A DNA stretch of 45,485 nucleotides, from the IMG/VR virus record IMGVR_UViG_2869970738_000006, positions 1-45,485 of that record. The stretch is one strand, 5' to 3'. Source of the DNA: a virus (Duplodnaviria; Heunggongvirae; Uroviricota; Caudoviricetes). Position 1 is the first letter of the stretch; the number at the start of each line of letters is the position of its first letter. A model generated the notes under the pieces. The model searched no databases, had not been told where the DNA came from, and worked only from the letters and a program-made list of their open reading frames with translations. The position numbers were made by a program, and so were the translations under genes. Below, piece by piece: positions 22,462 through 23,941 of this stretch.

Positions 22462-22915
22462 CACTCCCCGCTAAAGTGTTGCCCGAAAACTGGTGGCAAC
22501 ATCCAGCTGCATTAGGTGCAACTGACAGTGATATCGAAATCATCAAACGTCAGTGGGGTGCGTTTTACGGTACGGATCTGGAGTTGCAACTGCGCCGCCG
22601 AGGTATCGATACAATAGTGTTATGTGGGATCTCGACCAATATCGGTGTTGAATCCACCGCCCGCAATGCCTGGGAACTTGGCTTTAATCTGGTGATTGCC
22701 GAAGACGCCTGTAGTGCCGCCAGCGCCGAGCAACACAATAACAGCATTAATCATATCTACCCGCGCATCGCCCGTGTGCGTAGCGTGGAAGAGATCCTTC
22801 ACGCGTTATGATTTACATCGGTCTACCGCAATGGTCGCATCCTAAATGGGTGCGGTTGGGGGTGATGCTGCCAACTTACTGATTTAGTGTATGATGGTGT
22901 TTTTGAGGTGCTCCA

Positions 22916-23191
22916 GTGGCTTCTGTTTCTATCAGCTGTCCCTCCTGTTCAGCTACTGACGGGGTGGTGCGTAACGGCAAAAGCACTGCCGGACATCAGC
23001 GCTATCTCTGCTCTCACTGCCGTAAAACATGGCAACTGCAGTTCACTTACACCGCTTCTCAACCCGGTACGCACCAGAAAATTATTGATATGGCCATGAA
23101 TGGCGTTGGATGCCGGGCAACTGCACGCATTATGGGCGTTAGCCTCAACACGATTTTACGTCACTTAAAAAACTCAGGCCGCAGTCGGTAA
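22916..23191 (+). CDS. insA: IS1 InsA
   Basis: 91-aa ORF starting [30 protein letters not shown]. Confidence 0.95.
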
Positions 23192-23235
23192 CCTCGCGCA
23201 TACAGCCGGGCAGTGACGTCATCGTCTGCGCGGAA

Positions 23236-23613
23236 ATGGACGAACAGTGGGGATACGTCGGGGCTAAATCGCGCCAGCGCTGGCTGTTTTACGCGTATGA
23301 CAGGCTCCGGAAGACGGTTGTTGCGCACGTATTCGGTGAACGCACTATGGCGACGCTGGGGCGTCTTATGAGCTTGCTGTCACCCTTTGACGTGGTGATA
23401 TGGATGACGGATGGCTGGCCACTGTATGAATCCCGCCTGAAGGGAAAGCTGCACGTAATCAGCAAGCGATATACGCAGCGAATTGAGCGGCATAACCTGA
23501 ATCTGAGGCAGCACCTGGCACGGCTGGGACGGAAGTCGCTGTCGTTCTCAAAATCGGTGGAGCTGCATGACAAAGTCATCGGGCATTATCTGAACATAAA
23601 ACACTATCAATAA
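23236..23613 (+). CDS. insB: IS1 InsB frame (normally made as InsAB' by frameshift)
   Basis: 125-aa ORF ending ..[18 protein letters not shown]. Confidence 0.9.
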
Positions 23614-23882
23614 GTTGGAGTCATTACCCGGTTGGGGATCACCAGCCTTGAAGAGTATGCCCGCCACTTTAACTGCGTGATACGGAATTTTTAAAAATCA
23701 CTAAAGAACGCCCAAGAGCATGTTTTTTATTTAGAAGAATCAAAGCGTTGTATTTCCATGTCATATAAAAATCGGCAAAGTTCATATGTAACAAAGTGTC
23801 CCAATCATGCCCCAAAATGCCCCACAACAAATATTTTTGCCCCATGCATGCCCCAAAAAATCACTTTCCTTCACCCTTGATA

Positions 23883-23926
23883 CTGTTTATCCATACAGTT
23901 AAAAATGATACTGTATACAAACACAG
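23883..23926 (+). promoter_or_regulatory. Two LexA (SOS) boxes upstream of dinI: 23883-23898 and 23911-23926
   Basis: Both fit CTGT-N8-ACAG (ctgtttatccatacag and ctgtatacaaacacag), 15-60 bp before the dinI start. Confidence 0.8.
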
Positions 23927-23941
23927 TGTAGAGGGACTTTT

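Follow-up and report, generated by a model that had tools for sequence, protein, structure and literature searches.

The window analysed here, a stretch of 45,485 bp, contains a chromosomal block in which the gene order of E. coli K-12 is kept: ruvC (16819-17343), yebC, nudB and aspS (18714-20486) on the minus strand are followed by yecD (20796-22811) and yecE on the plus strand. Both of the latter genes are interrupted. yecD is split by an IS110-family element, and yecE, which starts at 22808 and overlaps the stop codon of yecD in the same way as in K-12, is divided by IS1 and then passes into the end of a defective lambda-like prophage, here called copy B (23680-43464, minus strand). Copy B consists of dinI, a ykgJ-like remnant, tail fibre genes, lom, J, tail and head genes and a portal gene truncated at 43464. 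A second, similar prophage, copy A (approximately 663-12487), has a terminase gene truncated by other IS elements.

An IS3-family fragment (1-662), a second IS110-family element (12617-13792), an IS66-family element (14085-16474) and IS600 orfB (44667-45485) also lie in the window. A 118-bp remnant of the right end of IS1 (16561-16678), with the IS66-family element adjoining, abuts the last 145 bp of yebB (16679-16823), which indicates IS-mediated rearrangement on the yebB/ruvC side as well. Where K-12 has ruvA, ruvB and znuBC, IS elements and copy A are found instead. The source chromosome is of the Shigella type, IS-rich and with inactivated genes. In the complete E. coli collection the IS junctions are spanned by no record; this lineage was found only by exact-protein look-ups, the closest assemblies including GCA_002950315.1, GCA_002950295.1 and GCA_002950275.1 and, among complete ones, CP026795, CP026797 and CP026872.

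The original prediction was that yecE would be recognisable on both sides of an IS1 flanked by an 8-9 bp target duplication, and the alignments bear this out. The 5' fragment (nt 1-53 of the gene; 22808-22860, plus strand) and the following fragment (nt 46-96; 23629-23679, plus strand) each contain one copy of the duplication CGGTTGGG, at 22853-22860 and 23629-23636, respectively. Both are 100% identical to K-12 yecE, the match of the first running to 22861 (nt 54), and they encode residues 1-19 and 16-32 of the YecE protein. The length of the duplication is 8 bp with the G at the boundary given to IS1, as is usual, and 9 bp with this G given to the target; the ninth base is ambiguous because IS1 itself begins with G. 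The single-copy empty site, GTGCGGTTGGGGATCACC, is present in L017, the closest relative without IS1. The rest of yecE (nt 97-819), yecN and cmoA are absent from the whole 45-kb window, as searched at both the DNA and protein level.

The element itself (22861-23628, plus strand) is a complete IS1 of 768 bp. It has the canonical 23-bp imperfect inverted terminal repeats, GGTGATGCTGCCAACTTACTGAT and ATCAATAAGTTGGAGTCATTACC, insA (22916-23191) and an insB frame (23236-23613), and the Pfam domains Zn_ribbon_InsA, HTH_Tnp_IS1 and DDE_Tnp_IS1 were matched, so that in length, termini, gene content and direct duplication it conforms to IS1. The IS1/yecE junction pattern had no match among species-representative genomes. 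In the relative L018 (CP026867, from 11174 onwards) the left IS1 junction is the same, and the right flank jumps to the lom/J region; an IS1-adjacent deletion there has removed the segment from 23629 to approximately 26987, i.e. the att junction, dinI and tail fibre genes.

The insertion in yecD, for which a separate IS110-family element had been proposed, could be assigned to an ISEc20-type element of 1450 bp (21015-22464, plus strand), which is 99% identical at the nucleotide level to copies annotated as 'IS110-like element ISEc20 family transposase'. Its ends were set by alignment with the copies in O145 and O55 and with the empty yecD site of E. coli O104:H4. The 5' fragment of yecD (nt 1-219; 20796-21014, plus strand) is colinear with the K-12 gene up to GATGCCCCC, and colinearity resumes from 22465 in the 3' fragment (22465-22811, plus strand), in which the C-run (22466-22469) has one C fewer than its counterparts in O104:H4 and S. 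flexneri. Since the uninterrupted yecD of O104:H4, GATGCCCCC^TCCCCCGC, equals the joined left and right flanks, the insertion was precise and free of target duplication, with a boundary ambiguity of 1 nt (C). The transposase (398 aa; 21242-22438) contains the N-terminal DEDD (RuvC-like) domain DEDD_Tnp_IS110 and the C-terminal Transposase_20 domain (E-values 7.6e-48 and 7.3e-22, respectively), which, together with the high identity and the duplication-free insertion at a specific sequence, places the element with ISEc20. With these insertions, yecD and yecE are both pseudogenes here.

Other copies of ISEc20 occupy similar targets. In the O145 and O55 prophages the site is GCCGGATGATCCCCC^CCCCCC, and a second ISEc20 of L017 lies in the ykgJ-like remnant at GCCGGCCCC^CCCCCCGG, where the window keeps the empty C-run (24513-24519). 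All three independent targets are C-runs preceded by GCCGG, and because independent copies are found in such similar targets, the ISEc20-type element can be said to choose its sites by sequence. IS621, a member of the IS110 family, uses a bridge RNA. The non-coding left end of the element in the window (227 nt; 21015-21241) forms two stem-loop domains when folded as RNA (z = -2.55), and its sequence includes UAAUAGGGG, in the same sense as the right end, and GUAACGUG, the complement of the circle junction CAC|GTTAC, as well as UGCCCCC and CCGGGGGG, which match the two halves of the C-run targets; these are matches of 7-8 nt, and the guide assignments are our own reading. No Rfam family matched the left end in a search of 20400-24800, and it looks like a putative IS110-family bridge RNA.

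Near-identical assemblies differ by one base in two homopolymers, at 22466-22469 (4 or 5 C after ISEc20) and at 22858-22862 (GG or GGG before IS1), and the length of ISEc20 varies among them from 1446 to 1451 bp. The 4-C allele was seen only in CP026xxx assemblies. These differences may be assembly errors rather than real mutations, and such homopolymer noise in the CP026xxx assemblies, possibly in the window too, bears on the choice between 8 and 9 bp for the IS1 duplication and on the length of the yecD C-run.

Downstream of IS1, similarity to yecE falls to background immediately after 23679, the last bacterial base. Beyond it the window reads ATACGGAATTTTTAAAAATC..., whereas K-12 continues with GAGGGCAAC..., and the GC content over 23600-23899 is 0.375. 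Unrelated AT-rich phage-end DNA had been anticipated from about 23680; DNA-level alignment places the break exactly there and detects no yecE homology further on. Alignment of the junction to intact yecE, as proposed at the outset, gave the att core. Comparing the junction in the window with K-12 yecE and with the far end of the O104:H4 prophage defined it as TTAACTGCGTG, 11 bp (23669-23679; yecE nt 86-96), a sequence common to attB, attL and attR. Imperfect similarity runs a few bases upstream of it. In the record of the Stx2e phage phiP27 (NC_003356) the annotated 11-nt attL is exactly this sequence, and in that of an Stx2a phage (LC616079) an annotated 21-bp imperfect duplication at the same position encloses it. 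A 21-bp attL/R in yecE has been described previously, with many different Stx1a, Stx2a, Stx2d and non-Stx phages located at this gene (Nakamura et al., PMC8112680), and lysogenisation into yecE has been shown experimentally for a transduced Stx2d phage (PMC9751135).

E. coli O104:H4 str. 2011C-3493 (NC_018658, our L003) has the same junction (99% identity) and, beyond it, a homologous lambda-like prophage of about 48 kb, which supplies the end that the window lacks. At its far end an excisionase and a 436-aa tyrosine integrase are followed by ...CCCGTCATG TTAACTGCGTG GAGGGC..., leading into yecE from nt 97 onwards; the junction sequence there is ...CCCGTCATGTTAACTGCGTGGAGGGCAAC.... The integrase end of phiP27 is 95.8% identical to that of the O104:H4 prophage. 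At this integrase-proximal junction the phage supplies in-frame codons (...TRHVNCVEG compared to the native ...ARHFNCVEG), and RefSeq gives a 256-aa DUF72 protein starting at an apparent ATT codon inside the 3' end of the integrase gene. Integration may thus leave an expressible YecE with an altered N-terminus.

The virion-derived genome of phage CharmingMan contains the integrase side, a core with one mismatch (TCAACTGCGTG) and the dinI side contiguously, i.e. in the attP form. An exact-pattern scan of viral contigs for the reconstructed attP gave no match; a BLAST search of phage records with the same sequence recovered contiguous attP. When species-representative genomes were scanned with the att junction, S. 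flexneri SFBU1023 and E. coli ECMA0423 were recovered; each has ISEc20 in yecD and lacks IS1. Among 5426 complete E. coli genomes, 523 (~10%) do not have an intact yecE 5' region, and some examples of these are broken at nt 96.

The window thus has a breakpoint between bacterial and phage DNA at the core TTAACTGCGTG within yecE, and a phage-side arm homologous to that of phages known to integrate in yecE, which in a free phage genome forms one stretch with the integrase side; the cognate tyrosine integrase and the reciprocal junction (integrase, core, 3' part of yecE) are absent from the window. As both of these features are present in the homologous O104:H4 prophage, their absence reflects decay of this copy and not a different origin, and the window junction is the integrase-distal one. 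The original prediction that the attachment junction of copy B lies inside yecE accordingly agrees with the phiP27 attL and with the reciprocal junction in O104:H4. On these sequence comparisons the 23679/23680 break is judged to be a genuine phage attachment junction. Chance does not explain any of the pattern, in which whole elements, precise empty sites in relatives and an annotated att core fall together.

The exact positions of strand exchange within the 11-bp core cannot be read from the sequence. By inspection, a 7-bp TTAACTG lies between inverted 5-mers, CCACT/CGTGG in attB and TCATG/CGTGA in attP, and may be the overlap. A short overlap between inverted repeats is the usual core layout for tyrosine integrases.

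The attachment-site arm of the phage (23680-23876; 38% GC) is 98.7% identical to the end of phage PhiR49_2, 99% identical to the end of the O104:H4 prophage and 88% identical to Stx2_KH16-043, and 260 bp separate the core from the first phage gene. It contains four direct repeats of TGCCCCA, at 23808, 23818, 23838 and 23849 (span 23808-23855), out of six occurrences in the whole window on both strands. In the O104:H4 prophage the motif also stands on the integrase side, at a distance of 71 bp from the core and within the longer context GTCCCAAT(C/G)ATGCCCCA. It occurs on both arms of the CharmingMan attP as well. The repeats, which apparently lack annotation in any record examined, are candidate arm-type integrase sites. 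Together with the ISEc20 left end, this leads to a joint reading that we regard as possible rather than probable: phiP27/yecE-type integrases would use TGCCCCA on both attP arms and a 7-bp TTAACTG overlap, and the bridge-type RNA of the ISEc20 left end would guide the element to C-runs preceded by GCCGG. Both of these small points are perhaps absent from the literature.

Between the arm and the first gene there is a promoter-like site (23877-23926, plus strand) upstream of dinI, with two CTGT-N8-ACAG motifs resembling LexA boxes (23883-23898 and 23911-23926); the homologous region in the VT1-Sakai record is annotated as promoter and LexA. The dinI-like gene (23942-24190, plus strand; 82 aa) is the first gene of this prophage end and is 99% identical to the O104:H4 'DinI-like family protein'. 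PF06183 was matched on the corresponding gene in relatives. Just inside the prophage end follows the frameshifted ykgJ-like remnant (24326-24650), which holds the empty C-run mentioned above; a ykgJ-ecpE-like segment in prophages has been reported to serve as a secondary attB for other phages (PMC8112680). The sole result of the Rfam search of 20400-24800 was a sub-threshold partial match to CssrB (chromosome-encoded Shigella sRNA B) at 24260-24312 on the minus strand (23 bits compared to a gathering score of 76; E = 0.11). It was treated as probably due to chance.

Colinearity of copy B with the yecE prophage of O104:H4, at 76-99% identity, extends from dinI as far as the portal gene. Its truncated portal gene (42895-43464) is followed by IS600, and neither the other half of yecE nor a matching core, both of which had been expected at the far end of the prophage, is present in the window. 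When the far end was sought in relatives by means of the truncated portal protein, the prophage likewise stopped at IS600. The integrase, the excisionase and the integrase-proximal junction are absent from the window and from the next 10 kb in the closest assemblies. With the integrase end and the rest of yecE neither in the window nor adjacent in relatives, copy B is a non-excisable remnant, and its integrase type would be that of the homologous O104:H4 and phiP27 prophages. Beyond the portal break, four close assemblies have IS elements and then zinT/yedYZ or other chromosomal DNA, e.g. a TonB-dependent receptor gene; differing DNA past a common break shows ongoing IS-driven rearrangement. 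Copies A and B are in direct orientation approximately 34 kb apart, with head and tail modules 97-99% identical (663-12487 compared to 34584-43464), and the essential gene aspS is flanked by the two.

The three insertions were proposed to be independent hits within about 3 kb, and the relatives support this by showing nested, separable states. The prophage junction occurs with intact yecD and without IS1 in O104:H4 and in many other E. coli; prophage and ISEc20 are found together in the S. flexneri loci and in L014, L015 and L017; and all three events are combined in L016, L018, L019 and the window. Among assemblies 99.7-99.9% identical to the window, IS1 is present in L016, L018 and L019 and absent from their sister L017. 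In a public collection, 1585 blocks are indexed with the yecD::ISEc20 fusion protein, and all eight places listed (30 contigs read) carry the prophage junction; the one record with a name among the relatives found is S. flexneri. By parsimony across the assemblies, the order would be prophage, then ISEc20, then IS1. As ISEc20 is target-specific, the yecD insertion in relatives could in principle be recurrent rather than inherited.

The original prediction had also marked the region as an insertion hotspot, and here the evidence divides. The phage att site deserves the label, as the frequency of broken yecE 5' regions among complete E. coli genomes given above attests. The wider idea that yecD-yecE is an intrinsic regional hotspot, where a local property of the DNA attracts unrelated elements and the hits are not independent of place, we consider improbable. 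It draws on the presence of three elements within 2.7 kb, on further events nearby in relatives (the second ISEc20 in L017, the ipaH insert in S. flexneri and the IS1-adjacent deletion in L018) and on IS1 in yecD or yecE of two unrelated E. coli. Each hit, however, is sufficiently explained on its own, the prophage by a defined 11-bp att core and ISEc20 by its use of C-runs in unrelated contexts. Among the 30 top-ranked matches listed, two other strains have IS1 in these genes, and at different positions, for which reason a site specificity of IS1 at yecD-yecE, suggested by these two strains, was rejected. The window moreover contains at least seven IS elements or fragments in 45 kb, about one per 6-7 kb, and by our simple, rough Poisson estimate two IS elements in a 3-kb span would be expected in about 6% of cases, which we rate as unremarkable. 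In addition, the prophage had already inactivated or orphaned the two genes, so that later insertions were neutral. For the region as such, the label of a hotspot that draws IS elements is not justified.

Two other origins of the junction would remove site-specific integration at the chromosomal yecE altogether. An IS1-mediated or otherwise illegitimate rearrangement might be suspected, with IS1 merely 33 bp away, an IS1-adjacent deletion at this very locus in L018 and a genome that is heavily rearranged, but the identical junction in the IS1-free genomes of O104:H4, S. flexneri and L017 effectively refutes it. The position of the break is also exactly that of the att annotated for phiP27 and of the reciprocal junction in O104:H4, and yecE is undamaged over the 51 bp that separate IS1 from the junction; we give this explanation practically no weight. 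The yecE stub could, on the other hand, be a phage-borne 'attB-in-prophage' copy like those in ompW prophages, i.e. a prophage within a prophage, since 100-bp yecE-like segments with the 21-bp attB are known inside prophages (PMC8112680). Those copies share 87% identity with yecE. The stub in the window shares 100% with the K-12 gene and has the K-12 overlap with the stop codon of yecD, and before it stand aspS-nudB-yebC-ruvC in their chromosomal order. No phage genes are present in the window between aspS and yecD, and a phage-borne origin of the stub seems exceedingly improbable.

We thus favour, with high confidence, three separate mobile-element events that have hit yecD-yecE of a Shigella-type chromosome by three well-understood mechanisms. 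A lambda-like temperate phage of the phiP27 or 'yecE-type' integrase group would have integrated by tyrosine-integrase recombination of attP and attB within the core TTAACTGCGTG, leaving the 5' part of yecE, the core, the phage arm, dinI and the tail genes in this order, with the junction at 23669-23680; an IS-mediated rearrangement would later have cut the prophage in the portal gene at 43464. An ISEc20-type element would then have inserted without duplication into the C-run of yecD (GATGCCCCC^TCCCCC), a type of site that it also uses elsewhere. IS1 would have come last, with a duplication of 8-9 bp; its target was the 5' stub of yecE that the prophage had orphaned, at a point 33 bp upstream of the att core.

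Taken as a whole, the feature is a phiP27-type prophage junction with IS1 and ISEc20 insertions, and it represents ordinary, well documented and already known biology. It opens no new question, as yecE is a textbook integration site of Stx phages and the behaviour of IS1 and of the IS110-family element is canonical. For annotation, the analysis provides the exact end of copy B at 23680 and the pseudogene status of yecD and yecE, and the order of events may be usable as a lineage marker among Shigella-type genomes. If the guide reading for ISEc20 is true, yecD would be a programmed and possibly recurrent target, and not a single inherited accident in several Shigella lineages.

Compared to phiP27 and the yecE-type Stx1, Stx2 and non-Stx lambdoid prophages of O145:H28, O157, O80 and O104:H4, the window has the same attB in yecE, the same 11-bp core TTAACTGCGTG and the same layout, with the integrase at one junction and the dinI-like and tail fibre genes at the other, and its arm DNA is 88-99% identical to PhiR49_2, the O104:H4 prophage and Stx2_KH16-043. 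Unlike these prophages, the copy in the window lacks stx, the integrase end and the modules for regulation, replication and lysis, and its portal gene is cut by IS600. It also differs from its S. flexneri relatives, in which an ipaH gene (LRR and NEL) lies between dinI and the tail fibre genes; the window has no ipaH just inside this prophage end. As with attP and attB of phage lambda, a short common core lies in host sequence, long AT-rich arms with direct repeats extend on both sides and the integrase gene ends near the core, whereas the core itself is different, the repeat motif is TGCCCCA (predicted sites) and attB is intragenic. The yecE-type integrase was too distant from lambda Int for a match in the DNA searches made. 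The IS1 element shares with IS1 in general the length, the 23-bp terminal repeats, insA/insB with the A6C frameshift motif and the target duplication, and is approximately 91% identical to another IS1 in related genomes and 97-98% identical to IS1A-type copies. The element in yecD corresponds to ISEc20 in its 99% identity, its length of 1450 bp, its 398-aa DEDD transposase, the lack of target duplication, the sequence-specific targets and the structured non-coding left end.
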